DNA of 64,000 bases from Verrucomicrobiota bacterium (GTDB lineage Bacteria > Verrucomicrobiota > Verrucomicrobiia > Limisphaerales > AAA164-E04): contig CP170459.1 of the NCBI GenBank assembly GCA_047947115.1, positions 4,512,001-4,576,000 on the forward strand, in the 5' to 3' direction. Made by a program: the position numbers and the translations under genes. Below, one piece after another: positions 10,721 through 28,440 of the stretch (position 1 is its first letter; every line of letters starts with the position of its first letter). The notes under the pieces were generated by a model. That model was not told where the DNA came from. It ran no database searches and saw nothing but the letters and a program-made list of their open reading frames with translations.

Positions 10721-10753
10721 ATTCTGTTTTGTATCGATTAAATATTATCTTGA

Positions 10754-11973: not shown

Positions 11974-13450
11974 ACAAATTTCCTTTCTTGTTTTTGGCGA
12001 TTTTGGGTTTTGGGACAGCATTCAGGCGTCTCAGTCCAAGGGCATAGGCCTGAATCTGGCGAGGCGTCTGGCGTGGACAGGATTGTTGATAGGCCTCAAG
12101 TGCGGCGGAGCGGACTGCTTTCCCCCAACCCGATTCAGGGAGTTCCTCGTCAATAGTGAATTCACGAGCAACATCAAACAGTTCAGGAAGACTTTGCTCG
12201 GTGATGGTCCAGAAGTGTTGACGAGCTTTGTTATAAGCCGGAGAAAGCACTTCGAGTTGCGAGGCGTAGACTTTCACTGCTTGAATCAGGATAGATTCTG
12301 CGATCTCGGCGTATTTAACGCCTCGTTCGTAAGCAAGGCGCCCGGGCGTGTCGAGCATTGAACGCGGTATGCGATATTGAGCTTCCACGACATCTTCGAT
12401 CTTAGCCTTGTCCGTAACCAATGCCCCCACCCAAAGGCCCACTTCCGAGAAAGTTACTTCGTGGGATAGCGCCAAAGGGCCTGATATCGAATCGCCGGAA
12501 GACCGTCGACGAATTGTTACGGGAGCCAATTGGCGCCAGAGACTTCGGTCTGTCGAGGCAGGCATCAATCCGTAATCATCCTTCTTTTGGATAATCGTGG
12601 CAGTTGCTTCGCGATAGGTAGGAAAGATCGGATAATCCAGTCCGTTGGCTAGAAGCATCTTGTTTCCGTCCTCGGCCAAACAGACGAAGCGAGTGAGAGG
12701 GACCAAGCGCCCCAGATATGAGGAAGAGGCGTTTTCTAAGGCTGATTGATCAGCGGCGTCAATAGGGGGACAATCCCATATAGGCTTTCCAAATCTCGAA
12801 TAAACATCTCCAACTATCGCCTTGGTCAACAAATTCAAATGGATGGTATCTAATAGGGAATCGCCAAGCAACAACGCATGGAGCATGCTGGAAGATACAC
12901 ATGGAGCGTGGTTACTAGATCCTTTTCCGAGAGTATCTTTACCATGCCACTTCGCAACGCCAATACGCCCCCCGGGAGAAAAACACTGAAATGTCAGTAG
13001 ATTGAGAGCAGCGCGAGAAGCGGAGACCGATCTGTTATCCCCGGCAGAATTGTCGAAAAGAGTCGAGTTGTTACCTGTAGCGAGTGAGAGATCAAGCTTG
13101 GTGGATGAGTTCCCCTCATCTGTATCCTTGCTAGGCTTGAGATTTGAAACCTGCAGAAACCTTTCACTGTCACCGAACAAGTCGAATTTAGTTTTCCTAT
13201 TCTCCAAATACTCCTTCACTAGAGGTTGGATACTTTGCAAGCAATCCTCCCAATCCTCTTCATCCTGAGGACCATCTAATGCGGCCTGTGATATACAAAT
13301 TAACAGACGCATGAGAGCAATGCGTTCGTGTGGTTTCACGGCAAGGTCCCGGAGCTCGTGGGCTTGCGCGAACATCTCTTGCAAGCTGTAAAGCATGCTC
13401 TTGCCGTTATGGCAAACGGCTGGGATCCACGGATCACTGGTCAAATTCAT
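11954..13450 (-). CDS. cse1: Type I-E Cas8e (Cse1/CasA)
   Basis: MNLTSDPWIP start, FDLFG..RFLQ; position between cas3 and cse2. Confidence 0.93.
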   Translation of the reverse strand: MNLTSDPWIPAVCHNGKSMLYSLQEMFAQAHELRDLAVKPHERIALMRLLICISQAALDGPQDEEDWEDCLQSIQPLVKEYLENRKTKFDLFGDSERFLQVSNLKPSKDTDEGNSSTKLDLSLATGNNSTLFDNSAGDNRSVSASRAALNLLTFQCFSPGGRIGVAKWHGKDTLGKGSSNHAPCVSSSMLHALLLGDSLLDTIHLNLLTKAIVGDVYSRFGKPIWDCPPIDAADQSALENASSSYLGRLVPLTRFVCLAEDGNKMLLANGLDYPIFPTYREATATIIQKKDDYGLMPASTDRSLWRQLAPVTIRRRSSGDSISGPLALSHEVTFSEVGLWVGALVTDKAKIEDVVEAQYRIPRSMLDTPGRLAYERGVKYAEIAESILIQAVKVYASQLEVLSPAYNKARQHFWTITEQSLPELFDVAREFTIDEELPESGWGKAVRSAALEAYQQSCPRQTPRQIQAYALGLRRLNAVPKPKIAKNKKGNLYEQNQA

Positions 13451-16067
13451 CGTCGTCTTCACTCCAGGGTTCAGGTTCAGTATGTGGGCGGGTCTTGGCG
13501 GAATGATCGACGAAAACGCCGAAGTCCGGGTGATAGGATGTTGAAGATTTTTCCTCGCCAAAAATGAGATAACCATCGTCAGCCATGCATGCGACTACAG
13601 CATCGTGAGAAACGTGCTCCGTCAACCAGTGTGGACATTGCGCGTCTGACGGCACCAACCACTTGGGTACACGTACGAACCATCTGTGAAGGAACCGGGC
13701 AGCATGGATGCTCCACTCGAAATCGGAAATATTCAAGGTGGATTGTTTGGTGTCCAATGCAGTGAGTCTCCACTGATTAGACGGAAGTTGTTCGATGGAT
13801 TGAAGGATTACCAGAGGGACAGTAGGAGGCCCTTTACGTCGAGTTAGCACTCCATCGTCGTCCGCATTGAGCATGGGAAGGCCTAAAACACGCATGGCAG
13901 ATTCCGCATTGAGGGCGAGCTTTCTTTTCTCAGTCTCCATCATTTCGTACAGTTCAGACCAGCCACATGGTTCATCGTCGGCAGGAAGGGCGTAAGTAGC
14001 TTCAAGGACTTCACGGATTTGAACAGGCACAATAATCTTCGAACGACCTTGCCAGACCTGAGCGCTACGAAGGAGCACATAGGGGGCGTAAACTCTGCCG
14101 CTTCGACCGAGGGCGATTCTCAGCATCTTTGAATTCGCGTCCTCGTCAAGTTGGGGGAGCCGAATCCAAAATTCTGGCTCTTCGGCAGTGCGCTGCCCAA
14201 GCGGACGTTCGTGACGCCAAAGCCGCCCCATACGCTGAACTATCATGTCAGTGGGAGCCAGATCGGACACAATAAAATCGAGATCAATGTCGACACTTTG
14301 TTCGACAACCTGCGTAGCGATCAAGATGGACCCCGGGCCGTCTGATGAACGGTTTTTACCCAGGTGATTCAACCAGTCCTTTTCCAACTCCTGTCTTCGT
14401 TCGAAAGGAAAGCGAGCATGCAGCAAACCTAATTTCACATCCCCCTCTCGCATCTCATCTTTCAGTGCACGAAAGCCCTGTTGTGCTTCTATGACCGTGT
14501 TGCGGATCCAAAGGACATGCTGACCAGCTTCGGCACGGTCGATGAGTTCTTCAAGGACAGTTTCCGTTGAAATTTCCCCAACATGAATTTTAATGGGATA
14601 TGACTTGATCCATTCCGGCTCATGATATTTCACCCCCCCACCCGGAACCGCCTCGGTGACGAGAGGATAAGCGTCAGGGCTTCCAGATTCTGAGCAGCCA
14701 GCGGATGCCAATAGCTCTCGCCTCCTTTGGGTGGTGAGTGTGGCACTGAGAATGATGACAGAGCAGCCGAGATGCAAAAGTTCACGAACCAAGGCACACA
14801 CTAGTGTGCCAGTATAAACGTCGTAGGAATGAATCTCGTCGAGAATCACCACTTTACCTGCAAGACCGAACCTGCGGACAAAGAAATGCTTGACTGTCAC
14901 CATGCTTTGTAAAGCTTGATCGATCGTTCCAACACCGTAAGGCGCAAGAAGTGCTTGCTTACCAGACGCAAACCATGATCGAGCTTCACGAAGTTCATCT
15001 GCAGGATCTTCACCGTCTTTAGGGTTACTAAAACTATAATGAGCTTGTCTAAGCTTTATAACTGGAGTTACTTCTAGCCAAGCATGACTATGAGCAAGGC
15101 GAAGGTGTGCGGTGTCCTCGATTACGTTTTCAAGAAAATCTGCAACACGCAAGTGAATGCGATTACTGGTTACCTGAGTAGGTAAGGCAAAGTAAAATCC
15201 ATGGTGGTGGCCGGCATTAATCCACTTTTGAGCAACATGAAGGGCGGCCTCGGTTTTACCGCACCCCATCGGGGCTTCAACAATGACGATGCCTGGCTTG
15301 GTGACAGCAACACATTGCTGAACCGAATTCGGCTCGAATCCGGGCGAAATCTTTGATGAAAATGCTTTATCGAATGCAGTAAGCCGCAATTTTCCTCCAG
15401 GCCAGCCTATGACTGCCAGCGCTCTCTTTGCCTGCTTTCGAGCCTGCGACAAAGACACACCACGTTCAGATGAAAAAAATTCTTCATTTGAACCAATCCA
15501 GTCAGCAACCGTAATCAATCCGGCCAACAACCAAAGATCGGAATGGTATCGACTGAATCGTTTACTAGGTGCTTCGGCTGGAAGCGGCCCGAATATCTGA
15601 ATCAATTCTGCAGCAACAGCTTGACGGTGAACCGACGCCCAATCGCCGGCAGCTTCGAATTCGAACCTGGCGTTTCGTCCCTTAGGCCGGCCATGGTGCG
15701 CTCCGACGGCAGCGGCCCAAAGATGGGCCTTGGAAGGCTTGAGCAGAGTTTGAAGAAAAACCTGGCTGACAAGCGCGTGATCCGAAACTGATGCGGTGGC
15801 CATTCTCCTGATGGACTCGTCGAGCTCGACTGGAAACCGCCACTTAGCACATTTCATTTGAAACCCAAGCGTGATTTTCCCAATGTCATGCAGTGCCGCC
15901 AAAATTGAAGCCCCCTCAGAAAATTCCCTTTTCACGTTCTCTGGTAATAAGGAAAGGAAAGCTTCCGCCACGAACCCAACATTTACGCAATGGTCAAAGA
16001 CAGACAAACCCGGTTCTCCAGAGGGAGTTGTCTTTGCCCAGAACTGATTATAATTAAGCTGGTTCAT
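13434..16067 (-). CDS. cas3: Cas3 HD nuclease-helicase
   Basis: HDIGK, HHG, ADWIGS, APMGCGKTEAA, DEIH, SAT, TQVVEQSVDID, QRMGRLWRH. Confidence 0.97.
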   Translation of the reverse strand: MNQLNYNQFWAKTTPSGEPGLSVFDHCVNVGFVAEAFLSLLPENVKREFSEGASILAALHDIGKITLGFQMKCAKWRFPVELDESIRRMATASVSDHALVSQVFLQTLLKPSKAHLWAAAVGAHHGRPKGRNARFEFEAAGDWASVHRQAVAAELIQIFGPLPAEAPSKRFSRYHSDLWLLAGLITVADWIGSNEEFFSSERGVSLSQARKQAKRALAVIGWPGGKLRLTAFDKAFSSKISPGFEPNSVQQCVAVTKPGIVIVEAPMGCGKTEAALHVAQKWINAGHHHGFYFALPTQVTSNRIHLRVADFLENVIEDTAHLRLAHSHAWLEVTPVIKLRQAHYSFSNPKDGEDPADELREARSWFASGKQALLAPYGVGTIDQALQSMVTVKHFFVRRFGLAGKVVILDEIHSYDVYTGTLVCALVRELLHLGCSVIILSATLTTQRRRELLASAGCSESGSPDAYPLVTEAVPGGGVKYHEPEWIKSYPIKIHVGEISTETVLEELIDRAEAGQHVLWIRNTVIEAQQGFRALKDEMREGDVKLGLLHARFPFERRQELEKDWLNHLGKNRSSDGPGSILIATQVVEQSVDIDLDFIVSDLAPTDMIVQRMGRLWRHERPLGQRTAEEPEFWIRLPQLDEDANSKMLRIALGRSGRVYAPYVLLRSAQVWQGRSKIIVPVQIREVLEATYALPADDEPCGWSELYEMMETEKRKLALNAESAMRVLGLPMLNADDDGVLTRRKGPPTVPLVILQSIEQLPSNQWRLTALDTKQSTLNISDFEWSIHAARFLHRWFVRVPKWLVPSDAQCPHWLTEHVSHDAVVACMADDGYLIFGEEKSSTSYHPDFGVFVDHSAKTRPHTEPEPWSEDDDEFDQ

Positions 16068-16288: not shown

Positions 16289-17413
16289 TTAGCGGATCCA
16301 ACAAACCTCCCCAAATCCGCAAGGAGATCTTACCATAGACCCAGATTCCAACACCCAAAGTAACTCCTGCTCAGGAGCGCGATCGGGTATTGAGCCATAA
16401 CCATCTGTAAAATACACCAGCAAGGCATCATCATGGTCGGGATGTTCCATCTCCTTGAAAAATGGTCTGAAATCAGTTCCTCCGCCCCCTTTGGGCAGCA
16501 AGGCCTCTTGATCCTCCAGATCATACGGGCCATGCAGTTCGGTGTCAGCGTAGTAAATTAACAGGTCCAAGTGGGGGTATGAAGCAACAATGCCACGTAG
16601 TTCTGCCATGAATTTTCCCAGGTCTTGGGGGCTTATCGACCCACTGGTGTCGATGCAAACCCGGACCTTGAGGCTCTCTCCCTGCAGGTCCTCGAGGTAG
16701 AGACCGGAACCGATGAAACGACGATCGAATCCATCAAAATCGACTTGGCTACTGGCAAGAAACCGCCAGAGGAGGGTGCGCCAGTCGAGCGACGGTTCCA
16801 GAGCTTCATCCACCGCCCGAAGAAGACCTGCGGGCAGTTGTCCAAAAGCGTCTTCCCCTGTGAGCATGCGGGCCCGTGAAAAAGCCGATGCCCAGAATGT
16901 TCTTTGTTCGCGTTCTTCTGAGGCGTCATCGATTCCTGCACCGTCATGGTTTGAACGGGTCCGAACCAGGTCGTGCCATTCAGCACTGAGGGTGTAGGGC
17001 TTGCTGTATGTGCTGAGTCGATCATAGGCTTCCTCAACTTCAAGATCTTTGAGCCTGAAATCTTCTATAGGGCTGAAGGGCAACTCCAGATCCTTTATCT
17101 CACGGACCATTCCGTTGATGACAATGTCAGCGGCGATATTCCATTGTTCGGGATCCCTTTGTCCGCACCTTGAGGAGTGGCGGAGGGCAGCGTGAAGTAT
17201 CTCATGCACCATGACGCCATCGAGTTCTCGGGCATTGATGGAACAGACAAATTGAGGATTGAACCTGATCCATTTACCATTGGTGCACGCCGTGGGTATT
17301 GCCTCATCCAAATGGTGATCGATGAACAGTGCCAGAGCTCCAAAGAATGGTTGACGGGCTCGTAGTCTCACGAGAGATCCTTCCAGCCGCAGGGTTGCTT
17401 CTTCAGTGCTCAT
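16289..17413 (-). CDS. Predicted HEXXH metallopeptidase + vWA-like domain protein (DUF2201-like)
   Basis: HEILH zincin motif, WNIAADIVIN, MIDAS DTSGS, GGGGTDFRP, YFTDG. Confidence 0.85.
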   Translation of the reverse strand: MSTEEATLRLEGSLVRLRARQPFFGALALFIDHHLDEAIPTACTNGKWIRFNPQFVCSINARELDGVMVHEILHAALRHSSRCGQRDPEQWNIAADIVINGMVREIKDLELPFSPIEDFRLKDLEVEEAYDRLSTYSKPYTLSAEWHDLVRTRSNHDGAGIDDASEEREQRTFWASAFSRARMLTGEDAFGQLPAGLLRAVDEALEPSLDWRTLLWRFLASSQVDFDGFDRRFIGSGLYLEDLQGESLKVRVCIDTSGSISPQDLGKFMAELRGIVASYPHLDLLIYYADTELHGPYDLEDQEALLPKGGGGTDFRPFFKEMEHPDHDDALLVYFTDGYGSIPDRAPEQELLWVLESGSMVRSPCGFGEVCWIR

Positions 17414-18405
17414 GCGGCTTGCAACAGGTGTTTGAGAAACGGTTTAAGTTTGGGTTCATTGGCCAGTATGGTGGCCAGTTCTCCAAGTTGCCCGTTGCTT
17501 TTTGCTCTCGAATAAACGACGTGGATAAAAAGTTGACACCACTCAGGTTTTGCCTGACTGACCAGCCACGAGAAAGCAAAACGGATGGCCTCTGACTCAG
17601 TCGCGCGATGCCCTAGTCCAAGAGTCAGCGCATACCGCTGTGAAGGCTCATTCGGAAAGTCGATTTTTGCGCCACAACCGTTCAGGATGTGCTCAAGATT
17701 AGGCAAGTCCTGATAGACCTTTAGAAAGGATTCAAACTCTAGAGCGGTTCCATCACCCACGGCTGCCGTTATTGGGCTGCCTATAGTGTGCAACTCTGAA
17801 GCCATTTGCCATGTGCGCGGGGACGGCCATGCGGAGTTTTTAGTATCCAACTGGTGCAGGAGTTCAGGTCGATAATTGATGAATGCAAGAACTTGTTCAT
17901 GAATGCCATTGTCAATTGCCCAATGTCTGAAACTTGTCAGATCGGGCTCCACTTCAAAGTGCAGGAATCGGTTGGCCAAAGGAGCTGGCATCTGGTGAAC
18001 CGAAGCACGATCTTCTCTTCGATTGCCAGCAGCCCAGATCACCCAGCCATCGGGCACGCTGTAGCTGCCGACTTTACGATCCAAAATCAATTGCTGTGCG
18101 ATGCCCTGAATGGCCGGAGGAGCCAAGTTGATTTCATCCAGAAATAATATCCCTTTACCCTCTTGTGGCAGGAATTCCGGTGGGAGCCAACGCGCCGTCT
18201 CACCGGAAGCCACAGGCAATCCCCGCAGATCAGTAGGCGCTAGTTGGCTGAGACGCAGGTCGATGATCTCGAGATCTTGTTGCCTTGCTAAATCTGCGAC
18301 AATGGAAGATTTACCAATGCCAGGAGGTCCCCAGATCATCACCGAACGATGGATCTTGTGTTCAAGTAGTTTAGTAAGTTGTTGATGAAGTTGGGTGGGT
18401 GTCAT
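17410..18405 (-). CDS. MoxR-like AAA+ ATPase
   Basis: Walker A GPPGIGKS, Walker B LFLDE, AAGN, LANRF. Overlaps both neighbours by 4 bp. Confidence 0.9.
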   Translation of the reverse strand: MTPTQLHQQLTKLLEHKIHRSVMIWGPPGIGKSSIVADLARQQDLEIIDLRLSQLAPTDLRGLPVASGETARWLPPEFLPQEGKGILFLDEINLAPPAIQGIAQQLILDRKVGSYSVPDGWVIWAAGNRREDRASVHQMPAPLANRFLHFEVEPDLTSFRHWAIDNGIHEQVLAFINYRPELLHQLDTKNSAWPSPRTWQMASELHTIGSPITAAVGDGTALEFESFLKVYQDLPNLEHILNGCGAKIDFPNEPSQRYALTLGLGHRATESEAIRFAFSWLVSQAKPEWCQLFIHVVYSRAKSNGQLGELATILANEPKLKPFLKHLLQAA

Positions 18406-20555
18406 GCCTTGGTTGGGTAAGGGTTTTCGGTCTCAAACTGAAGATTATCTCTAACAGCCGCACGAACAAGCGGGTGGCGATCCCGGGAAAGCCCATCACG
18501 CAGGTAGGGGTGTAGGCTCGGCTCCAAAGCGGTAACCGCCCTGACAAACCAGTGTTTGTCCCGGGTCAGGATCCGGTGTCGGATTCGGTCCTTGCGGTCC
18601 CAAAGGGCTAGGCAGGATCTATACCAGGGGTTGCGGCTGTAGAGCAGATCATCGGCTCCCTTGTTTGCCTGCTCCAGAAAATGGTCGCGTGCCGGGCATT
18701 CTGCTGACTGTAGGAAGCCGCTGATGGTGGCCTTCTGGATCAGAGGCTCGGGGTCCTTCATCAATCGGTTTAAGGCCTGGGGGCTAGTCCAAGGATCATT
18801 AGCAAGCAACCACCGCAAGGCGGGGTGTTCATCTTTCAACAATGCAGACTCGAACTTTTTGAAAAACGTAGGATACCGTTTGAGTTCGCTGGCCCGCTCC
18901 CAAAGCACCAATTTGGCAGCTTGCTCACGAATGGCAACCTCCTTAACCGCAAAAAGCGGCAACGAGTCTTGAAAACATTGCCAGGTCCGTTTGCTGAGGA
19001 CCTCCAGTGCGACCTCAGGCACTGGGTCCTTGACCAGCTGGCTGAGGTCCTCCCCGCTGATCCTCCAGTCCCGACAGATCTTCTTACGAATCTCAGGATC
19101 AGGATCACGGGTTAATTCGGAAAGGGTGTGGGCATAATGCTCTCCGCGATAGCGTGTGTGACTATGTGCCAGATAGTAATCGGCCACGGCATGACGGACC
19201 GAGCTGTCAGGGTCTTTGACAAGCTGAGGCCTCAGTGAGGAAGCCGGTCGCCCTGGCAGCCTGGCAGCAGCGGCCCTGAGCCTGGGGTCTTCGTGTCGGG
19301 CTGCCTTACCAACCAGGAAGGAATGGGCTGATGGATGAACCAGTGGGATCAGCTCATCAGCGGTTTTGGTCTTGATCAGCTCTTTGGCAACCTCCCTGCT
19401 AGGCTTTGGATTATCGAAAAGCGCCTGACGGATGGTGCCACCAAGGCCCCATAAGCGCTTCTCGGTTGTCCTGGAAAGGCCTTCCTTTCGCGCCAAAGCC
19501 TCGAACCAAGAGGACCGGAACCCTTTACCTATCAATTCCTCCACAGTCTCCTCAACAGCCTGATCGTCGATAGGCCATTCTAGTTTTATCTGCTCCCAAG
19601 CGGCTTGGCTGACGGACGGCTGGGAGTGGCGCGTCATCCGCCATAAAAAACGTGAATCAGTTCGCCAGTTTTGGGCCACGATTAAGGCGACTTGTGGCGC
19701 CTCTTCAAATGCCTGGTCGATCATTCGATACAAAAGGTCACGGGAACGTCCTTCCAGGCCACTGCGTCGCCAATCACGACACAGGGCAAAACTCACAAAA
19801 AACTCGGGCTTTTCGTGCTCAAGGGCATATTCAAACATGTCATCCTGTGCATAATCCTGAGCTAAATTGAGCGCTCGAATGCATAAATGTGGGTTGTGTT
19901 GAAGTTTGCGAGCAATTGCCAATACATCACCAACGACCTCGTTGGGTTTCTTGATGAAACGTTCTGCATACGGATGATCGGAGTCAGGATTTTGCCAAAG
20001 CGAACCGAGAGTGATCCGATGGTTACTGAGGTTTTTTATTACCCCCTTACCGACATCGAAGGAGGAATCCTTCAGGAATGGGACCAGGTGCGATGCTGGA
20101 AGCTTCTCTGCCGCTTTTTTGCGTACATTTTTGGACGGGTCACTAGCCAGTGCCGCCACATAATCTTCAACCAAGGCCGGCTTTCTGCTCAATAATCTGC
20201 CTAGTAAGCTCCATTTACCCATGCTTTGCCACTCAAGAAAATCCTCACAATCTTCGAGCCGCTGCGCTTCGGTGATGTAACTTTCAAGCACTTTCGTATC
20301 TTTTCTGTGGATCAGGTAAGTGTACAAACTCAGACGACAAACGTCCGGTAAAAGTCCATGTAAGGATTTTCCCTCGTTCAAAGACTTCAATGCCAAGATA
20401 GGATTATCCAACATGGCCTGGGGTTGGTCTATCCAAAGATTGATCAGCTCTTCCCATGGAGTTGATGGATTCAGAGCACGTCCCCCGGCTGCTTCGCAGG
20501 TATACGAGGACGTTTTTGGTTCTGACGCTCGGTTGTTTTGACCAACATCATTCAT
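18402..20555 (-). CDS. HEAT / leucine-rich-variant repeat protein
   Basis: NPSTP..L..P..LDNP N-terminus; repeated L..DP...VR..vA units. Confidence 0.8.
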   Translation of the reverse strand: MNDVGQNNRASEPKTSSYTCEAAGGRALNPSTPWEELINLWIDQPQAMLDNPILALKSLNEGKSLHGLLPDVCRLSLYTYLIHRKDTKVLESYITEAQRLEDCEDFLEWQSMGKWSLLGRLLSRKPALVEDYVAALASDPSKNVRKKAAEKLPASHLVPFLKDSSFDVGKGVIKNLSNHRITLGSLWQNPDSDHPYAERFIKKPNEVVGDVLAIARKLQHNPHLCIRALNLAQDYAQDDMFEYALEHEKPEFFVSFALCRDWRRSGLEGRSRDLLYRMIDQAFEEAPQVALIVAQNWRTDSRFLWRMTRHSQPSVSQAAWEQIKLEWPIDDQAVEETVEELIGKGFRSSWFEALARKEGLSRTTEKRLWGLGGTIRQALFDNPKPSREVAKELIKTKTADELIPLVHPSAHSFLVGKAARHEDPRLRAAAARLPGRPASSLRPQLVKDPDSSVRHAVADYYLAHSHTRYRGEHYAHTLSELTRDPDPEIRKKICRDWRISGEDLSQLVKDPVPEVALEVLSKRTWQCFQDSLPLFAVKEVAIREQAAKLVLWERASELKRYPTFFKKFESALLKDEHPALRWLLANDPWTSPQALNRLMKDPEPLIQKATISGFLQSAECPARDHFLEQANKGADDLLYSRNPWYRSCLALWDRKDRIRHRILTRDKHWFVRAVTALEPSLHPYLRDGLSRDRHPLVRAAVRDNLQFETENPYPTKA

Positions 20556-20579
20556 ACGATGGTAATTTAGTGGATGGGG

Positions 20580-20598
20580 TAGGACAAAAACTGTCCTA
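20580..20598. promoter_or_regulatory. Inverted repeat TAGGACA-N5-TGTCCTA, operator-like
   Basis: Perfect 7-bp arms, 25 bp upstream of the HEAT gene start. Confidence 0.5.
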
Positions 20599-20606
20599 GG
20601 CTTGTA

Positions 20607-20774
20607 TTAAATGGATTTATTGTCTTCATCTAAAGTCTCTGGGGGTTTGTTGTTGTTGTCGTCTTCGCTGGTTTTTTCATGATAGGCTTTCCAAACCTCA
20701 TCAGGAATTAGGGTCAGTGCGCTTCCTGCTTCCAGGTAAAGCTCACGCAAAGAGTCGTCTTTAGAATCAGGCAT
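20607..20774 (-). CDS. Small acidic hypothetical protein (55 aa)
   Basis: ATG overlaps the upstream stop (ATGCCTGA). Confidence 0.45.
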   Translation of the reverse strand: MPDSKDDSLRELYLEAGSALTLIPDEVWKAYHEKTSEDDNNNKPPETLDEDNKSI

Positions 20775-21009
20775 TTTGGACCCCTTCTTTTGAATTCGAA
20801 ACAACATTTTTCCAACCGTCACGAAGCAATGAATTCCGTTTCTGGTGGGCCTTGGTGCGGGATTTTGTGTGGAGATTCACTCGGAACCGTTCCTGTCGGA
20901 ATCCATCCTTAATCGCCCAGAAGTGGCACCACCAGGTGCCGTGATTTTGGAATAGGTGATGGTCGGGATTATTTTTCCGAACCCGCACCGAAAGACTCCA
21001 GCTACTCAT
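20767..21009 (-). CDS. Small basic protein resembling a three-stranded DNA-binding (integrase arm-like) domain
   Basis: NPDHHLFQNHGTWW..ERFRVNLHTK..KAHQKRN pattern; coupled to both neighbours. Confidence 0.65.
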   Translation of the reverse strand: MSSWSLSVRVRKNNPDHHLFQNHGTWWCHFWAIKDGFRQERFRVNLHTKSRTKAHQKRNSLLRDGWKNVVSNSKEGVQNA

Positions 21010-21190
21010 TGTTCGCCTCCTTCGGTTGATGATTGCATGTCTGGCCTGTCTCGACTACCCGAGGAATCCTGCGGATGGGGATCACGATGAGTTGCTCACC
21101 GTCTTTCAAGAAGGAGCTTTTGCCCTCTATGTTGATTTGATCAGGCTGACGCGATGACGCGTTACCTGTCGTTTGTTTTTTGTCTGTCAT
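21002..21190 (-). CDS. Small hypothetical protein (62 aa), first ORF after the riboswitch
   Basis: Starts ~45 nt after the terminator; stop overlaps the next ATG. Confidence 0.45.
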   Translation of the reverse strand: MTDKKQTTGNASSRQPDQINIEGKSSFLKDGEQLIVIPIRRIPRVVETGQTCNHQPKEANNE

Positions 21191-21233
21191 GGCTCAATGT
21201 TTTTTCTGGTTTCATTGGCCACCAGGATCTGGA

Positions 21234-21272
21234 AATACAAAAGACCCGCACTCCAATCAGGAACGCGGGTCT
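21234..21272 (-). terminator. Intrinsic terminator (riboswitch expression platform)
   Basis: Minus strand AGACCCGCGTTCC-TGATT-GGAGTGCGGGTCT followed by TTTGTATT. Confidence 0.85.
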
Positions 21273-21282
21273 AAAATCCGGA

Positions 21283-21400
21283 GGAGACTTACTTTCCACT
21301 CAATTGAGTGGCTCATCCGATACTTTTCAGTATCGAAGGCACCTTGGCTCTCCCAGCCAGGTTGCCAGGTCTTGCAACTTGCAGGACCGTTCCTGATGAC
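21283..21400 (-). ncRNA. SAM riboswitch aptamer, SAM-I/IV variant
   Basis: P1 TCATC/GATGA; P2 GGTC..GACC; P3 GGCAACC..GGTGCC core; P4 CGATACT-GAAA-AGTATCG; P5 CCACTC-AATT-GAGTGG; L3 GGAGA complementary to 3' TCTCC (PK-2). Confidence 0.88.
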
Positions 21401-21406
21401 GACTTC

Positions 21407-21435
21407 AACCTACATCATGCAGATGTGTTCGACAA
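21407..21435 (-). promoter_or_regulatory. Putative sigma70 promoter for the riboswitch, TTGTCG-N17-TAGGTT
   Basis: 17-bp spacing; predicted +1 falls at the first aptamer base (~21400). Confidence 0.55.
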
Positions 21436-21456: not shown

Positions 21457-21774
21457 TTAGTCGGACGAGTCTGGTTCGCCAATCAAACACCAGATCCCTT
21501 CTTCCCGTATGGTTTTAAGAACTTCGTCCAGAGCCTCCTGATCGGTATCAAAGGGATCATCCCAGACGGTCGAATTATCGTATTCGTCTTCAACCTCAAG
21601 TATCCATTTGCCTTCTCCGTCTCCGTAAATTTTAACGGAAACAGAGTCGTCGCCAATGCTGATGACTTGGCACAATGGAGAATACACGAGCTCAAAATCG
21701 TCGTCGCCTCCCTCGATTTCAAAAGTTGGTCTGATCATTTTCAATGAATCTAACCAACGGGGCGTTCCAGTCAA
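21457..21774 (-). CDS. Small acidic hypothetical protein
   Basis: 105-aa D/E-rich ORF, WILEVEDE..STVWDDPFDTDQEAL. Start uncertain. Confidence 0.65.
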   Translation of the reverse strand: MTGTPRWLDSLKMIRPTFEIEGGDDDFELVYSPLCQVISIGDDSVSVKIYGDGEGKWILEVEDEYDNSTVWDDPFDTDQEALDEVLKTIREEGIWCLIGEPDSSD

Positions 21775-21844
21775 CTCCGCTCAGAGTTGATCGGATGGCT
21801 GTCGCTGGGTGTATTCCGGCGTCTACTTTTTACCTGTGCGTTTT

Positions 21845-21970
21845 ACTGCAACTGGTTTCCTGCACTGCAGAACAGTAATAAACCTGCCAGTTACTGCAAC
21901 TGCAAACCCTAAAGGGTTTTTGCAGTATGCAGTTAACCTGGCTTTAGCTTTTTCACTGCAACGCTGCAGT
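21845..21970. repeat. Putative replication origin: clustered ACTGCA/TGCAGT iterons around a central palindrome
   Basis: About nine (A)CTGCA/TGCAGT copies in both orientations at the 3' end of the helicase gene, centred on AAACCCT-AA-AGGGTTT. Confidence 0.65.
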
Positions 21971-23005
21971 AGTCCAGATACGAGTCTTAGGTTCCTTGGT
22001 CACTGAACCATCATGCTCAAGCTGCTTGAGCAAATTGTGAAAAGTACGTTCGCTCATTCCTGTCTCTTCTCTGGCAAGCTTGAGCCAGTCCTTTGTTTTG
22101 CAACCTGAAACCGGCAACAACTCAAGCAATTGCTCTGATGAATACTTCTTGCTTGCTCCTGCCTTGGTCTTCAGATCAGAAGGATCGAAGTCAACTCTTG
22201 TACAAACAGGATGACTCCAGCTTATCACGAAGCTTTCAACACTCGGATGATTACGCAGGACCAAGTCCACAGTGAAACAATCCTCTTCCTTGTGCTTGGT
22301 CATTGTCACCAGTGCATCCGGATCTCGAGCAAATACACCACTGCCTGAGAATCGATCCATTTGTTCCTTGCCGGCTTGGTTGCCCTTGGAAAAATGGTGA
22401 GCACTGATGACGGCGGCACCGGTCTGGTTGGCTATGTCATCAATTATGTTCAAAAACTCCGCTATTTCCCCGGCGGCGTTTTCATTCCTACCGGCCATGA
22501 TCTTGTAAAGCGGATCAAGGATAATGGCCCCATACTTCATCGGAGCTGCCCGGCTGCATATGGCTTCTCTGATGGTCGTAATATCGGGATTGTGACCGCG
22601 CAAGCCCCAGTAGTCGATGTTCTCCATTCCACCATCGGGATATTTTGCGACAACACCTTTGATCGATTGATCAATATTGTCCATGCGCTCCATGAAAAAC
22701 GAAGTGAGCAGTTCCATATTGACATACAAAACGCGGCACTTGTTAGTTTTAAAATCCAACCAGCTTCCGCCTGAAGCCAGTGCATGTGCAAGTTGCATCA
22801 GGATCCAAGTCTTGTTGGATTTGGATCCACCGCCAATGATCATTTTGCAACCGGCGTGTAACACCCCATCAATCAATTCCGCGGGCTTCTCGCGATCCTG
22901 CGGATTCAATTGACTGAGGGGTGTTATTTCCGGCAGATCATTGCCTTGCGCCAAGGCAAGATCCAGTGGATCCAGAATTAATTGTTCGGCATCCATCGTT
23001 CGCAT
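21953..23005 (-). CDS. RepA/AAA_25-type replicative helicase with probable C-terminal wHTH
   Basis: GGGSKSNKT, VLYVNME, IILDPLYK, HHFSKG, SGSGVFARDPD. Confidence 0.88.
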   Translation of the reverse strand: MRTMDAEQLILDPLDLALAQGNDLPEITPLSQLNPQDREKPAELIDGVLHAGCKMIIGGGSKSNKTWILMQLAHALASGGSWLDFKTNKCRVLYVNMELLTSFFMERMDNIDQSIKGVVAKYPDGGMENIDYWGLRGHNPDITTIREAICSRAAPMKYGAIILDPLYKIMAGRNENAAGEIAEFLNIIDDIANQTGAAVISAHHFSKGNQAGKEQMDRFSGSGVFARDPDALVTMTKHKEEDCFTVDLVLRNHPSVESFVISWSHPVCTRVDFDPSDLKTKAGASKKYSSEQLLELLPVSGCKTKDWLKLAREETGMSERTFHNLLKQLEHDGSVTKEPKTRIWTTAALQ

Positions 23006-23997
23006 AGGTCTCCATGTTGGCTCCAGTAATCATAAAGGTCGTTCACCCCTTTAAATGGCGACAATTCGTATACCTCCACTGAAGAGCACCCTGCATCAAG
23101 TAACTGTTTTTTCCAGCGGGATGCCGCTCGCCTTCCAGCTTCGTCATCATGTCCGAAGATCCTAATCACTTTGCCCTTGAAAAAAGGAAGCACGGCCTCA
23201 TGTATGAGTGAAGAGCTGCCAAGCATGCCCACGGGTGCACAATTAGGTTCTGGCTGTTCGGTCTGGATGATGTGATGTGCAATCAGGAAATCCGGAATTC
23301 CCTCAACCAAGGCTATGTTCCTGAACTTTGATGCCTCCACAATACCAACGGGCCAGCTTTTCCGACTACCGGGCTCGGCCTTGCTTTTAATTCCTGCTGG
23401 AAATGGCTTGTTGTCCAGCCGCCGTGCCTCAATGACGTTCCCTGTTTTGTCGCATACGTAGTAGCATTCGTTCTTGCACTTAAGAACGCCGCGCTCCGAA
23501 GCCCAGAGCAGTCCCTGCAGACCGTAAGGCCTCTCATGAGCCATTTGCTGCAGAATCTGCCTAGAGGGCTTCAGAAGGCCGCGACCTTGCTCGTATGCCT
23601 CTGCATCCAGAAACATTTTGGGATCCAAGTTAACCGGTTGATCCTTGGTCCTGCGCAAAGGGCGGATCCGCTTTGGTGGGGCAACCTTAGCCAGGGTTCT
23701 GTATATGTCCAACACCTTGGCAAAATCTTTGTGCCGATCGAAACCGTGAACAGTGGCAATGAATTGAAGTTCATCTCCAACAAGTCCTGTTCCGTGGTCT
23801 TTGAACAACCAATTGGTCTCAACTTGATAAATCCCAAAACTTGGATTCTTATCGTCCCTGAAGGGTGAAGAACATGATTTTTTGGCATAATCGCCGAAAT
23901 CCATTGCTTCCATCAGATCTGGGAGTGGAAGCGCTTGTTTGAGTTGTTTAATTTGACTCTGCACCTTGGCAGGAGTTTGAACTTTTAATTGTTTCAT
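22978..23997 (-). CDS. DnaG-like primase (degenerate CHC2 zinc finger + Toprim)
   Basis: SCSSPFRDDKNPSF..FKDHGTG..GD; Toprim LVEGIPD and GHDDEAG. Start trimmed to the ATGA overlap. Confidence 0.82.
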   Translation of the reverse strand: MKQLKVQTPAKVQSQIKQLKQALPLPDLMEAMDFGDYAKKSCSSPFRDDKNPSFGIYQVETNWLFKDHGTGLVGDELQFIATVHGFDRHKDFAKVLDIYRTLAKVAPPKRIRPLRRTKDQPVNLDPKMFLDAEAYEQGRGLLKPSRQILQQMAHERPYGLQGLLWASERGVLKCKNECYYVCDKTGNVIEARRLDNKPFPAGIKSKAEPGSRKSWPVGIVEASKFRNIALVEGIPDFLIAHHIIQTEQPEPNCAPVGMLGSSSLIHEAVLPFFKGKVIRIFGHDDEAGRRAASRWKKQLLDAGCSSVEVYELSPFKGVNDLYDYWSQHGDLCERWMPNN

Positions 23998-24404
23998 AAA
24001 TTTGAGTTGGGAGAGTACACACCCTCCCCAATTGATAAGTTTTCTGTTAATGGTTTGATTTCCACTACCTTGGCCATGGTTTGACCTTCGGCCTCGAAAT
24101 GCGCTACTTTCAGTTGGCATTTCTTTCCCTTGAGCTTCATTAGATCGAACTCGTTGTGAAGTTCCTCTGGACCTACCCATGCAGATAGATCCTTTAGCAG
24201 ATTGCTTTTGGGATGCAGGGTTGCGTTATAGGATTTCCTGATCTGAAGCGTCTCTGATGAGTCTTCAGGGACGATCAACCATGTGAAACGGACGAGGTGC
24301 TTGTTGCCATATTCAGTAGGCACAAAGCCTCTGTCCACGATCTCGGAGCAAATTGCCCGATGCCATCCCTCTTGGGGCAGTTGTCTAAGTAATTTTAACT
24401 TCAT
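23994..24404 (-). CDS. Phage-type ssDNA-binding / replication protein (OB-fold-like)
   Basis: PQEGWHRAIC..VDRG..KSNLLKDLSAW..LKGKKCQLKV; directly upstream of the primase. Confidence 0.6.
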   Translation of the reverse strand: MKLKLLRQLPQEGWHRAICSEIVDRGFVPTEYGNKHLVRFTWLIVPEDSSETLQIRKSYNATLHPKSNLLKDLSAWVGPEELHNEFDLMKLKGKKCQLKVAHFEAEGQTMAKVVEIKPLTENLSIGEGVYSPNSNL

Positions 24405-24824: not shown

Positions 24825-24855
24825 GTGGACAACCTGTCCGACGTTTGAGGAAATG

Positions 24856-25518
24856 TCATCTGGACAATTTTGGATCCAAGTTTGTCCAACTCGCATCTAG
24901 TATAAATTGAAAACCTTTACGGCGAAACCCTCTTATTATTGGCCCTCTAGTTACGTGGTTGTATCGAATTAGCCCCAGTCTCTGAACTGCTTTCCGGTAG
25001 TTTTGCTCATCACACGTATGTCCGCTTATTTTTGAAAGGTGATAGGCTCCATCATCGTCTGTCATCATCCATAAAAACCCATTCACCCAAAACTGTAGAA
25101 TTCCAAACTCGATTTTGAACGTTTTTTTACTAATGCGTCTGGTGTATCTTCGGTGAGCAGTATGGATTTTTTGAAAAAACTCAGAATCCCCATTGAGTGC
25201 CTTCTCTAGGATATGATAAGCGAAGAACTTCAATGCAGCGTCAAGCTGGCCGAGTGAAATTAAACCAAAAAACGCTTCATCTTTTTTCGTGTCACTCTTT
25301 GTTATATCCTTTTGGCTCTTTGAGAGCCCAAAAGCTTTCCGTTGATATGCATGGACCTTTTCTTTCCAATTTTTGTGAACTTTGTCAAAGCCTTCGATTT
25401 TCGTTGTTTTCCTAAAAAAATCTTCTAGCCCGTTATCCAACTGCCATTTTTTACCTAGCTGTTGTCCAACACCTGCCAGTAACTCATCCCACTCGTCTAG
25501 TTGGTATGATTTTTCCAT
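24856..25518 (-). CDS. Hypothetical protein, possible element regulator
   Basis: ATG overlaps the integrase stop (TAATG); lies between integrase and xis-like gene. Confidence 0.6.
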   Translation of the reverse strand: MEKSYQLDEWDELLAGVGQQLGKKWQLDNGLEDFFRKTTKIEGFDKVHKNWKEKVHAYQRKAFGLSKSQKDITKSDTKKDEAFFGLISLGQLDAALKFFAYHILEKALNGDSEFFQKIHTAHRRYTRRISKKTFKIEFGILQFWVNGFLWMMTDDDGAYHLSKISGHTCDEQNYRKAVQRLGLIRYNHVTRGPIIRGFRRKGFQFILDASWTNLDPKLSR

Positions 25519-26711
25519 TAACTTCCTTTTAAGTGACTCAGTTCTCTTCGTAGGTCTAGGACCGAGTTTTGTGGATCTGGTAAACATTCCTTTAATTGAG
25601 GAAAGGCAACTTCTGATCGGATACTCCAGTAGGCTTCGGATTTATCCTTAGTTACCAGTTCCCGGTAATGCTGGTAAAGCATCGCCGTATCAGAGTGCCC
25701 CAGTTCCATGGCGGTTCGTTTTGGGTCATTGAACATCGCATAGTGGTATGAAGCAAAGGAATGGCGGAAGTCGTTCTTCCTTGCCCGTCCGATCCCAAGT
25801 TCTTGCCACGCTGCATTTAATAGTCGTCTCAAGTTTGGAGGCTTCACTTTCCCACTCCGATTGCCTTGGGCAAATAGCCATGATTGGAGGTTCGGTTGGA
25901 TCTCAACCAAGCGTCTTCTTGAGGTTTTGGCATTGGCTGCTTTGATTTCAATGTAGCCGGATTCCAGGTCAACCTCATCCCAGTTTAGCTTATCCAGTTC
26001 GGCGATCCTTAGGCCAGCGAATGCTGCGATAGCCAGGTAGGAATGGATCTTGGGATCCGCAACTGACAACAACTTTCTTAGTTGCTCTGGCGTCAGTATC
26101 TTGATGGGATCTGGTTTGGCTTTGACTTTCTCGATTCTGGAGACTGGGTTCTCAGCAACAAAGCCGTGCTTCAAGGCATGGGTGAAAAGTCCGTTCAGGA
26201 CTGTCCTGAAGTTGTTCATGCTCTGTGCGCTCAGTCCAAGGCTATGAATCCAATGGTCGATCTCCGAAGCTTTGATGGTTGCAGCAATTTTCTTTTGGAA
26301 AGCCTCATTAAATCGGCCTAATCTGTAGCTCAAATCTTTGAGGTATCGTTCACTGTTTTGTTTTCGAGATTTGGTGCCCAGATAATCTGCAATCAGATCG
26401 GAAACAGTGCAGCTGTTCTTGGAGCTTTCCAGGTGGGATAGGTAAAAGTTGACGGCTTCAGAAAGTGTGGCTTTGAAGGGCTTGAGGCGATCATCACATT
26501 GGACTGCTTCAAGACGTAACTGGTCGCTGATTGCGAAGGCTTTGTTGCCGAGGTTTTCAAGTTCGATTAAGATTTGATCCCTGCGAGTATTCGCCTCTTT
26601 TTTGGTTTTGAAGAATTCGCGGGTGCGCTTGCCATCCTTTGGGTAGCCGACGACCCATTTTGAAGTAGGAGAATGCTTGTAAGGTTTGACAGAAACTTTC
26701 GGCGAGCCCAT
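25518..26711 (-). CDS. int: Tyrosine recombinase/integrase
   Basis: AGLRIAEL, AKT, NDFRHSFASY, LGHSD..HY catalytic motifs; adjacent to attR. Confidence 0.95.
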   Translation of the reverse strand: MGSPKVSVKPYKHSPTSKWVVGYPKDGKRTREFFKTKKEANTRRDQILIELENLGNKAFAISDQLRLEAVQCDDRLKPFKATLSEAVNFYLSHLESSKNSCTVSDLIADYLGTKSRKQNSERYLKDLSYRLGRFNEAFQKKIAATIKASEIDHWIHSLGLSAQSMNNFRTVLNGLFTHALKHGFVAENPVSRIEKVKAKPDPIKILTPEQLRKLLSVADPKIHSYLAIAAFAGLRIAELDKLNWDEVDLESGYIEIKAANAKTSRRRLVEIQPNLQSWLFAQGNRSGKVKPPNLRRLLNAAWQELGIGRARKNDFRHSFASYHYAMFNDPKRTAMELGHSDTAMLYQHYRELVTKDKSEAYWSIRSEVAFPQLKECLPDPQNSVLDLRRELSHLKGS

Positions 26712-26803: not shown

Positions 26804-26852
26804 TGGAGCCAGCTGTCGGGGTCGAACCGACGACCGACGGTTTTCAAAACCG
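26804..26852 (-). other. tRNA-Thr-like 3' fragment and attR core (CGGTTTTCAAAACCG, 26838-26852); not a complete tRNA
   Basis: Minus strand ACCGT-CGGTC-GTCGG-TTCGACC-CCGAC-AGCTGGC-T-CCA = variable loop, T-arm, 3' acceptor strand and CCA. Confidence 0.88.
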
Positions 26853-28440
26853 ATGCCGCGAATTGCTCGATCTTTTGTTTTCTGACATCAAGCGTCATGG
26901 AGGCCAGGCCGCACAATTGGTTCAAGAACTTTCACAGATTGTGAACCCGGACCAATGGCCACTGACCATGGTTGATGTGGATGAAACCATGTGGAGTTCC
27001 CATCCGAAAACAAGTGGTTCCCACCGTGGCCCCTGGTATCGACTGTCCGTCAATGAAACCAGACTTGCCAGCAGCTACCGCAGAAATATTCCGACCCCCG
27101 ATCATGAAGGATTTCAGCAACGTATCATCGAGTATATGTTCAACACGCGGCCAGACGGAAGTTTTCGAGTCAACGATGCGATCGAGGATGGTTATGGTTA
27201 CGGATATCTATCTCAAGAAGCTTCGGCATCGGGCATTCCGAACCGTCCCGACATATCCTATGCAGGAGAACCCGGCTTTCCGGTTGACGGTTTGGCTTTT
27301 AACAGCAGCACCTTCGTCAACCCGAGAGATCCTAGCGGATTTGCCCGGATGGAATGGAGAATAGGAGAAGTGTCCAATCCGGAAACCGAAAACTACGTCC
27401 CCGGCACACCCTGGATTTATGAGATCGAACCTCTCTGGCACAGCGATCCCATGACAACTTTTTCAGAGACTATGGCCATCCCGCCGGACCAGCTCAAACC
27501 GGGACACACTTACCGCGCGAGAGTGCGACACGTCAACACAGAGGGGCATGCCAGTCATTGGTCACTACCATTGGAATTTGTCGCCTCGGCACCGGATTTG
27601 ACCTTGTTTCGGAACGGATTGGTCATCAGTGAAATCATGTATCACCCAGCTGGGGATTCCACGGCCGAATACATTGAACTTCACAATATCGGCGAAGCCA
27701 CTCTCTCCCTGAGTGGCTTCCGTTTCACGAAGGGAATCGATTTCGATTTCCCCGATGACACTGAAATAGAGCCAGGAGGATACCTGTTGATCACAGGCGA
27801 CCGGCAAGCCTTTGAAAGAGTGTATGGGCCAAACCTACCCATAGTCGGGGAATGGGAACAAGGGGACCGGTTGAGCAACGCCGGAGAAAACATCAAGCTC
27901 TCCTACGGGGCAGGCATCCCCATCATCGACTTCACGTATGAAACAGAAGCCCCCTGGCCAACCGCTCCCGACGGAAAGGGTTCATCTCTGCAACTTGCCA
28001 ACCTCCGTTCTGGCTTGGATCACACCAATCCCGCGCAATGGAAAGCAAGCATTCAACCAGGAGGCACGCCGGGCAAAAGCAATGGTAACTCTCTTGAAGA
28101 TTGGCTGACGTCTTATGGGATTATCGAATCCAATCTCGAAGAAGATCCGGACAATGACGGTCTGCCTTCGTTACTGGAATATAGTCTGGGAAGCAACCCA
28201 AACGTTGCCGATGTTTCATCCATCATGACCATCACATACACCGAGGCAAATGTCACGCTAGCCACCCGAGTTGATCTCGGAGCCACCGATGTGGAGGTGT
28301 CTGCACAATTTTCCACCAACCTGAAAGCCTGGGAAACAATCAATAGCCCGGCCATCAATCCCACCAGTCCGACCGAACTGAAATGGACCGCCCCAACCCA
28401 CCCGAAGGGATTCTTCCGCCTTCAAGCCACTCGACGTTAA
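26844..28440 (+). pseudogene. C-terminal half of the interrupted CotH/lamin-tail protein
   Basis: FQNRCRELLDLLF continues in frame from IRIG; second LTD (LVISEIMYHP..EYIELHN); DPDNDG..LEY..GSNP tail. Confidence 0.88.

Follow-up and report, generated by a model that had tools for sequence, protein, structure and literature searches.

A SAM-I/IV riboswitch upstream of a conserved Verrucomicrobiota operon with a small arm-like protein and MoxR-vWA-peptidase genes

A 64-kb stretch of the genome of a Verrucomicrobiota bacterium (the window; G000:C1:4512001-4576000 in a 6.08 Mb genome assembled as one contig) carries an S-adenosylmethionine (SAM) riboswitch of the SAM-I/IV class upstream of three small, overlapping open reading frames (ORFs). 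These are followed, on the same strand, by genes for a HEAT-repeat protein, an AAA+ ATPase of the MoxR/midasin kind and a putative metallopeptidase with a vWA-like domain. Many independent loci share this pairing of the riboswitch with the small ORFs, which argues that the arrangement is not due to chance, and the order of the genes behind the ORFs is also conserved. We conclude, with moderate confidence, that this is a conserved SAM-repressed operon that would respond to low SAM through remodelling or proteolysis by the MoxR-vWA-peptidase proteins, with the product of the second small ORF (ORF2) as a DNA-binding regulator. Regulation of methionine and SAM genes is the textbook role of SAM riboswitches. 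The relatives of this bacterium that have names in public records are marine Verrucomicrobia. Coordinates are window positions unless preceded by a genome (G) or fetched-locus (L) label.

The riboswitch leader and the small ORFs

A search of the whole window against Rfam gave a single gathering-level match, to RF01725 (SAM-I/IV), on the minus strand at 21404..21280. Together with the ORF map, this match bears out the description in the initial annotation of a riboswitch preceding three coupled ORFs of 62, 80 and 55 aa. The features of the leader and the small ORFs, all on the minus strand, are listed here in the order of transcription.

21435..21407 (-): possible sigma-70-like promoter (TTGTCG, 17 nt, TAGGTT), read by eye, ending about 7 nt before the aptamer
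21404..21280 (-): SAM-I/IV aptamer (RF01725), 125 nt; 48.0 bits against a gathering cut-off of 41.1, E 9.8e-5
21389..21398 (-): box 1 (CAUCAGGAAC; also given as AUCAGGAACG), the P1 5' strand and J1/2; proposed switching strand, complementary to boxes 2 and 3
21272..21233 (-): intrinsic terminator with a 13-bp stem (8 G-C), a 5-nt loop and a T-run; the hairpin (21272..21242) lies 8 bases past the aptamer
21256..21264 (-): box 2 (GUUCCUGAU; also given as CGUUCCUGAU), terminator 5' arm and loop; proposed partner of box 1 in the antiterminator
21213..21226 (-): box 3 (CCUGGUGGCCAAUG; also given as UCCUGGUGGC), after the T-run; predicted to pair with box 1 or with the bases preceding the ORF1 start codon
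21188..21199 (-): ORF1 start region (CAUUGAGCC + AUG), putative 3' strand of a start-masking hairpin in the minimum-energy fold of the whole leader
21190..21002 (-): ORF1, 62 aa, outside known families; conserved core KDGEQxIVIPxxRxPR
21009..20767 (-): ORF2, 80 aa, putative stand-alone DNA-binding protein resembling integrase arm domains; the most conserved gene of the module
20774..20607 (-): ORF3, 55 aa from an ATG at 20774 that overlaps the ORF2 stop; conserved N-terminal core and variable acidic tail

Judged by covariance score and alignment, the aptamer is a real member of the SAM-I/IV class, and it would be expected to bind SAM. An identical copy is present elsewhere in the same genome (G000:C1:1687562-1687686), and the RF01725 scores in 20 riboswitch-positive loci, from the 35 that were scanned, were 43.4-53.2 bits. 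Including the window and the second copy, 22 riboswitch sequences were available, of which 19 were distinct. Compensatory changes were found in 19 of the 37 predicted pairs in an alignment of 19 leaders, distant ones included, and the P1 helix (UCAUC/GAUGA) was paired in 95 of 95 alignment cells. Most consensus positions were matched in the cmscan alignment, J1/2 (discussed below) being an exception. The candidate promoter at 21407..21435 was too weak for a consensus promoter scan, which did not list it, and the approximately 14 nt preceding the aptamer in the other loci are A+T-rich and otherwise unrelated.

The terminator has been kept, with compensatory changes, across the 19 leaders. Box 1 shows contiguous complementarity of 9-10 nt to box 2 and of 9-11 nt to box 3 in all 17 of the leaders processed. 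In the alignment, boxes 1 and 2 were paired in 175 of 190 cells, compared with 46-76 when the partner was slid, and boxes 1 and 3 were paired in 159 of 190 cells. The box-1 segment and its box-2 partner have changed together, with the pairing kept, in the leader of locus L047 (described below), and the outer pairs of box 3 covary in distant loci. When the nascent RNA was folded computationally as far as the terminator loop, box 1 closed on box 2, and folding of the full leader placed box 3 in a hairpin with the bases immediately before the ORF1 AUG. Distant leaders have a different sequence here that forms an analogous hairpin over the start codon.

The aptamer, terminator and complementary boxes point to an OFF-type platform, so the genes should turn on when SAM falls, as the initial annotation had supposed. 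The transcript would begin with the SAM-I/IV aptamer. When SAM is high, P1 would close and sequester box 1 (CAUCAGGAAC), the 13-bp terminator would form and transcription would end about 45 nt before ORF1, while in any transcripts that escape, box 3 and the bases before the AUG would pair and mask the ORF1 start codon. When SAM is low, the free box 1 would pair with box 2 to form the antiterminator, or with box 3, allowing read-through and translation of ORF1. ORF2 and ORF3 would then be translated by coupling via the overlaps of 8 nt found at both the ORF1/ORF2 and ORF2/ORF3 junctions.

To survey the wider distribution, loci encoding ORF2 relatives were fetched from genomes (3) and metagenomes (34), one of them spurious. 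The same riboswitch was found upstream of the ORF2 homologue, on the same strand, in 20 of the 35 loci scanned with Rfam. Ten of the 15 negative loci have less than 300 nt upstream of ORF2, and the other five (L007 and L034-L037) are a divergent subgroup with another gene abutting ORF2, to which L038, left out of the scan, also belongs. ORFs were tallied over 38 loci, made up of 36 fetched loci, the window and the second copy in this genome. ORF1 homologues were found in the same position in 19 of these and an ORF3-family gene in 30, its start overlapping the ORF2 stop as in the window wherever the locus was mapped. A longer ORF3 frame of 71 aa, starting from a GTG, is also available in the window (20822..20607, -). 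The presence of conserved cores in both ORF1 and ORF3 (for ORF3, ...LRxxYxxxGSxLTL.P.D...) argues that all three small ORFs are real genes and that ORF3 starts at the ATG. The aptamer, terminator and leader, along with each of the three ORFs, are conserved even among loci whose ORF2 proteins are only 55-74% identical. Two runs yielded RNA-library contigs that lack 3 bases at window position 20647, within the Asn-rich ORF3 tail, and the same in-frame length difference is seen in the homologue in L030.

ORF2 was examined further as the probable core regulated gene. A set of 5.8 billion proteins yielded 19 relatives of 66-96 aa, and a profile search of 1.84 billion representatives yielded 641 proteins at E <=0.001, 96 of them at <=1e-10. 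Among the profile matches listed, nearly all were 56-140 aa long and contained the motif NPxHHLWxNxGTWW. The AlphaFold model of ORF2 is a small sheet with a long C-terminal helix (predicted local distance difference test score 84, predicted template modelling score 0.72). In the Atlas, ORF2 was placed at 0.97 beside 76-aa Verrucomicrobial clusters automatically named 'Integrase family protein' and, among clusters with a Pfam family, at 0.93-0.94 beside Arm-DNA-bind_4, Integrase_DNA, Integrase_N_phage and Arm-DNA-bind_1. DUF6538 was matched by 12 of 27 distant ORF2 members, always below the 27-bit cut-off (best 24.5 bits). A Foldseek comparison of ORF2 with the PDB gave no match at E <=0.001. 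No fusion of ORF2 to a tyrosine-recombinase catalytic domain was found among longer proteins, which is weak evidence, and the close relatives are all 66-96 aa long. On the basis of the sequence comparisons and the model, we read ORF2 as a putative stand-alone DNA-binding protein of the arm type, although it matches none of the curated arm families above threshold. It would presumably bind DNA, in line with the earlier description of one of the small ORFs as DNA-binding-like.

For ORF2, the weakest genome matches fall in open frames of 354-499 aa. One protein of 290 aa (P0115) consists of an ORF2-like domain fused to a homologue of a 208-aa protein, neither half having a Pfam family, and a gene for this 208-aa protein follows ORF3 in six loci (L005, L014, L016, L020, L027 and L028). 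The fusion argues that the ORF2-like and 208-aa products work together. Of 401 genomes of the phylum, 82 have a member of the wider ORF2 superfamily, and in one genus with genomes of 2-3 Mb this holds for each of the 28 sampled. In this small-genome genus, the ORF2-like genes (L056, L061, L062, L065 and L068-L074) are preceded by about 200 nt of highly conserved non-coding sequence. The idea that this is a structured leader was dropped, since Rfam gave no match and no clear consensus fold emerged (-3.3 kcal/mol).

Downstream genes and a sister operon with a MetK paralogue

The region that follows the small ORFs in the window contains these features.

20598..20575 (-): hairpin in the 51-nt gap between ORF3 and the HEAT gene, with no T-tail on this strand
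20555..18402 (-): HEAT-repeat protein gene, 717 aa (Pfam HEAT and HEAT_2); probable operon member
18405..17410 (-): AAA+ ATPase gene of the MoxR/midasin (AAA_5) kind, 331 aa; 4-nt overlap with the HEAT stop
17413..16289 (-): DUF2201 gene (putative metallopeptidase and vWA-like), 374 aa; 4-nt overlap with the AAA stop
16067..13434 (-): cas3, 221 nt beyond the DUF2201 gene

The product of the AAA gene matches Pfam AAA_5 (PF07728, E 2.6e-7), and its closest solved relatives are midasin AAA domains. The DUF2201 protein matches PF13203 (117 bits) and the vWA-like PF09967 (56.5 bits); a search for a relative of it with a solved structure found none. An AAA_5 domain encoded next to a gene for a vWA-domain protein identifies the two as a MoxR-type AAA+/vWA pair.

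The conserved gene order is ORF1-ORF2-ORF3-(208-aa gene)-HEAT-AAA-DUF2201. Of 22 loci with at least 1.5 kb of sequence past ORF2, eight contain a HEAT homologue (36-96% identity), which comes next after ORF3 or is separated from it by the 208-aa gene. The AAA and DUF2201 genes follow HEAT wherever the DNA extends that far, namely in the window, in L005 (AAA 78.9% and DUF2201 74% identical to those of the window) and in L048, from a genome of the same genus (G006). L048 has the riboswitch, an ORF1-like ORF, a 54-aa ORF, HEAT, AAA and DUF2201, and lacks ORF2. When 61 related genomes were searched, five were positive, G000 included, and all six RF01725 matches in them precede this module family.

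No minus-strand terminator-like site was found between 20607 and the HEAT start at 20555, where the hairpin without a T-tail is the only candidate, and the earlier observation that this gap contains no clear terminator stands. The suggested link from the riboswitch to the HEAT-AAA-vWA genes likewise gains from the conservation of gene order in several lineages. Transcription from the riboswitch most likely continues into the genes for HEAT, the MoxR-type ATPase and the metallopeptidase-vWA protein. Metatranscriptome contigs from four runs, whose libraries possibly include DNA, covered HEAT in all four. Three of the runs have contigs ending at 20546-20590, one contig extends over 20600-20967 (X15) and one runs across the terminator into ORF1 (21299..21081; X17). 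None bridges the gap between ORF3 and HEAT, and these contigs are silent on read-through or a separate HEAT promoter. A low-depth contig from X15 (depth 2, side 30) has 21243, just past the terminator stem, joined through 20 other letters to 16429, close to the DUF2201 3' end. This junction is weak and would mean a variant lacking ORF1 through most of DUF2201.

A sister operon was found in five other Verrucomicrobial genomes, and contains an ORF2-like gene, a MoxR gene, an uncharacterised gene here called X, a peptidase-vWA gene and a gene for a divergent paralogue of the SAM synthetase MetK. In L047, from a genome of the same order (G022), the riboswitch is followed by an ORF2-like gene (40% identical), a MoxR AAA_5 gene, a 322-aa ORF, a 500-aa protein with DUF2201_N and vWA domains and a divergent S-adenosylmethionine synthetase. 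G022 has kept a canonical metK elsewhere, the MetK C-terminal model giving 223 and 75 bits for its two genes. When the paralogue from G022 was used to search 401 genomes of the class, four more were found with 46-65% identity, compared with about 30% for canonical MetK. All four are in a MoxR-X-vWA-MetK-paralogue operon, and in three of the four an ORF2-like gene is found in front. Between the two operon types, the AAA proteins and the vWA proteins are distantly homologous (pairwise E 3e-6 and 7e-7).

Three of these five operons have a SAM riboswitch that scores above the Rfam cut-off. SAM-I/IV matches scored 41.6 bits in L047 and 42.9 bits in L095, and L096 has a sub-cut-off match of 31.9 bits. 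No riboswitch was detectable with Rfam upstream of the operon in L094. L097, which lacks the ORF2-like gene, has instead a canonical SAM-I riboswitch (L097 5489-5602, from G057:C57; 71.4 bits) directly before the MoxR, peptidase/vWA and MetK-paralogue genes. That two classes of SAM riboswitch precede the same operon type, whether or not ORF2 is present, argues more strongly than any other finding for control of the MoxR-vWA genes, and not of the tiny ORFs alone, by the riboswitch. The five operons with the MetK paralogue lie among housekeeping genes, such as those for the acetolactate synthase small subunit, LexA, RNase HII, TrmD and a LysR regulator.

The window module may be a lineage-specific version of the operon that ends in a MetK paralogue in sister lineages, and its most likely role would be in the response to SAM shortage. 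Remodelling or proteolysis would be carried out by the MoxR-vWA-peptidase machine and regulated by ORF2. Several findings weigh against the reading as a whole. The window operon itself has no MetK paralogue, and HEAT is absent from 14 of the 22 loci with enough downstream DNA; the HEAT-less loci include two with insertion sequence (IS) insertions (L003, L010), five with host genes on the opposite strand (L019, L021, L025, L028, L032) and the subgroup without the riboswitch. J1/2 is AGGAA here and not the consensus AAGAG, two well-conserved positions being changed; AGGAA is invariant in 19 of 19 leaders, and SAM specificity is assumed. The core of the boxes is invariant, and their pairing rests on complementarity with covariation at the edges only. 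Searches of Pfam and NCBIfam (E <=0.01 for ORF2) and of PADLOC found no family for ORF1, ORF2 or ORF3. Structural matches of ORF2 by VIA-align to AP2 (6sy0, Z 4.3) and lambda Int (1z1b, Z 3.5) were both weak, the best match being to DUF1488 (Z 5.6). In the wider ORF2 superfamily, a SAM-I/IV match was found at 3 of the 29 loci sampled across the phylum, 1 of them above the cut-off, and the neighbouring genes are unrelated, for example RecA and FtsA.

Defence, mobile elements and origin

The initial annotation had proposed that a drop in SAM is read as a cue of infection or stress. In the fullest form of this explanation, SAM is depleted by a phage SAM lyase and the riboswitch opens, whereupon the MoxR-vWA-peptidase and HEAT proteins act as a defence or abortive-infection effector, while the MetK paralogue of the sister lineages restores SAM for methylation-dependent immunity. 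A switch that is ON at low SAM fits such a scheme, and MoxR-vWA sets have been proposed as conflict systems. Occurrence is scattered, in 5 of 61 related genomes and twice in the present one, and some of the settings resemble islands. In the window, an integrase element lies on one side of the module and a complete type I-E CRISPR-Cas system (5455-16067, -; cas3, cse1, cse2, cas6e, cas7, cas5 and cas1) on the other. L005 has an EVE-AAA_5 (McrB-like) gene just downstream, and in L006 (1027-6858 and 9416-15707), from a single-cell genome, the module with a fragmented HEAT gene is found between genes for TIR-DUF4062, nSTAND1-WD40 and a second nSTAND1, a conflict-system-like context. Other loci are flanked by ordinary genes. 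Within the window, the CRISPR array (about 5455-7683) has a period of 61 nt, and one unit is an exact 2.5-copy duplicate at 6066-6217.

Against a role in defence, nothing in the operon was recognised by PADLOC 2.0 above noise: HEAT, DUF2201 and the three small ORFs matched none of its families, and AAA gave noise-level matches in the P-loop region only (E >=2.5e-4). The operon has no recognisable effector (nuclease, pore or NADase, for example), and no ORF2 relatives were found in viral contigs, phage records or plasmids. The position of cas3 downstream on the same strand, noted earlier, is correct for the window, but the adjacency is not conserved, since cas3 is absent after the vWA gene in both of the other loci that reach that far (L005, L048). 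A literature search found no paper linking a SAM riboswitch with MoxR or with phage defence, and nothing relevant on DUF2201 by title and abstract. The MetK paralogue at the end of a sister operon favours SAM homeostasis no less than phage sensing. Because the operons with the MetK paralogue sit in housekeeping settings, a physiological response to SAM shortage is the better supported of the two, and we regard phage sensing as unlikely.

A second possibility is that the riboswitch and ORFs belong to an integrative element and control it, with ORF2 as a directionality or copy-control factor that ties excision, integration or replication to SAM status. Upstream of the module, on the same strand, are genes for a tyrosine integrase (26711..25518), an HTH_17 protein, a primase-like protein, an AAA_25 helicase-like protein and a 105-aa ORF, and the G+C content falls to 0.43-0.49 over 20-27 kb compared with 0.50-0.54 in both flanks. 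This integrase-HTH-primase-helicase element is present twice in the genome (window 21457-26711 and G000:C1:1684419-1687747, the latter in L003), the copies being 97% identical over 3.3 kb. The similarity starts at the HTH gene and takes in the whole terminator, the copies diverging right after the T-run. Their integrases are unrelated (31% identity over 105 aa). The second copy lacks ORF1, an ORF2 homologue (89% identical) directly follows, and IS transposase genes have been inserted right after it.

Elsewhere too, the module is found at the far end of integrase elements, and these have two different replication modules, either a primase and AAA_25 helicase (window, L003, L010, L011) or a PolA-like protein (L017, L019). 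In L017 and L019 the riboswitch and small ORFs end a tRNA-integrase-PolA element whose integrase is 78% identical to that of the window. A third element in this genome, in L004, consists of a tRNA-Ser, an integrase gene and a PolA-like gene, and ends in the first 63 nt of the riboswitch (10291-10353; G000:C1:3854290-3854352) with 97% identity. The abrupt break inside the aptamer could be a deletion scar or a recombination point. Just upstream of the window integrase, at approximately 26856..26804 (-), is a fragment resembling the 3' half of a tRNA (T-arm and acceptor end), although neither ARAGORN nor Rfam called a tRNA at 26804-26856. An integrase beside a tRNA fragment is the mark of a tRNA-targeting integrative element. 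Similar fragments of 45-53 nt with 96% identity are found at G000:C1:3758798 and 3759130, 332 nt apart.

The likeness of ORF2 to integrase arm domains would also fit an element-borne control module. However, ORF2 showed no similarity by BLASTP to any of the three integrases of this genome, arm regions included, and the riboswitch and ORFs are found with no integrase, primase or polymerase nearby in many loci (L005, L006, L013, L028, L031/L032, L047, L048, L079-L081 and L095-L097). The spread of the ORF2 superfamily over the phylum, with its presence throughout the small-genome genus described above, also argues against a tie to mobile elements. No direct or inverted att repeats were found bounding the integrase element, nor any repeat of the tRNA fragment of at least 11 nt downstream, that would place the module inside or outside the element. 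Control of an integrative element by the module is, in our estimation, improbable, and the position of the window module beside the integrase-primase-helicase element and the type I-E CRISPR-Cas system would reflect its location in an island.

The operon might also serve as an alarm for SAM depletion, in which phage SAM lyases or other attacks on the SAM supply open the riboswitch to deploy a MoxR-vWA-metallopeptidase machine with a HEAT adaptor, the sister lineages adding a divergent MetK that makes SAM if the housekeeping enzyme is blocked. We consider this speculative and rather improbable. If true, it would be an immune or counter-counter-defence system triggered by a metabolite riboswitch on islands beside integrative elements and CRISPR-Cas.

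Least probable by far is a decaying relic, made up of a riboswitch fragment captured from the host methionine regulon together with chance ORFs: the lack of any family for the three small ORFs, the absence of ORF1 from the second copy and the truncated riboswitch in L004 would fit, but the aptamer, terminator, leader and three ORFs are conserved with compensatory RNA changes at 55-74% ORF2 identity and no met or SAM gene flanks the window operon or any locus of its subfamily. The single SAM-clan riboswitch of the host is a SAM-I riboswitch preceding a gene for a pyridoxal phosphate-dependent enzyme (a sulfur/Met-type gene) and not a SAM-I/IV, so the island riboswitch was not recently copied from the host regulon; searches of this genome for SAM-II and SAM-V were negative, their controls also being silent. 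The earlier alternative of a captured fragment of the host met regulon can be rejected, given this difference in class and the old, conserved link between riboswitch and ORFs. As to the neighbourhoods of homologues of the 80-aa protein, where the initial annotation had set met genes against mobile or defence genes, the riboswitch is present in 20 of 35 and both mobile or defence-like and ordinary settings are seen, while a gene for SAM synthesis, the MetK paralogue, is confined to the sister operon.

Significance and comparison with known systems

A SAM-repressed operon for SAM shortage, if this is what it is, would mean that low SAM is the input signal of a MoxR-vWA system so far uncharacterised, whose function would then become directly testable. 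Among the 61 related genomes sampled, SAM-I/IV is found only before a conserved operon encoding an arm-like DNA binder, a MoxR ATPase and a peptidase-vWA protein plus either HEAT or a MetK paralogue, and in one genome a second class, SAM-I, appears to have been recruited to the same operon type. The loci also provide a clear example of a riboswitch module that travels with, or at the edge of, integrative elements. Should the output prove to be defence, or rescue of SAM during phage attack, metabolite sensing by RNA would be linked to immunity.

In S-box (SAM-I) control of metK and met operons, the ligand closes P1, a terminator forms and the genes are on at low SAM. The OFF logic proposed here is the same, the sister operon ends in a MetK paralogue and L097 has a true SAM-I aptamer. 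In contrast to the S-box arrangement, the predicted antiterminator uses the 5' strand of P1 and not the 3' strand, and the operon starts with a small DNA-binding-like protein and a MoxR/vWA-peptidase pair, the window version having no MetK.

Known MoxR AAA+/vWA pairs include RavA-ViaA, CbbQ-CbbO and NorQ-NorD, and MoxR-vWA 'ternary' conflict systems have also been proposed; the Pfam model bpMoxR (PF20030) gave a weak match. The pair in the window resembles them in having an AAA_5 ATPase gene that overlaps a gene for a vWA-domain protein. It differs in that the vWA domain is fused to an SprT-like metallopeptidase (DUF2201), in its partner, which is the 717-aa HEAT protein or a MetK paralogue, and in its probable control by a riboswitch. 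Like the arm domains of tyrosine integrases (lambda Int, Tn916 Int; the Arm-DNA-bind families and DUF6538), ORF2 is predicted to have a three- to four-stranded sheet on a C-terminal helix, but it stands alone at about 80 aa and has an invariant motif of its own, NPxHHL...TWWCH.

The SAM-I/IV class was defined by Weinberg et al. 2010 (PMC2864571), where it is outlined as coming from 'several phyla, marine' and as typically metagenomic. As far as that outline goes, the riboswitch described here agrees with it in aptamer class by covariance score, in its place in a 5' untranslated region and in its marine origin. It departs from it in that the regulated genes are not recognisable SAM or methionine genes, in having J1/2 AGGAA and not AAGAG, and in a platform that appears to use three copies of one complementary box, as antiterminator, terminator and start-codon mask. 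The riboswitch class and the kind of ATPase-vWA pair are known, and what is new is the cargo and the three-box platform, although the list of gene associations in Weinberg et al. may already name hypothetical downstream genes.

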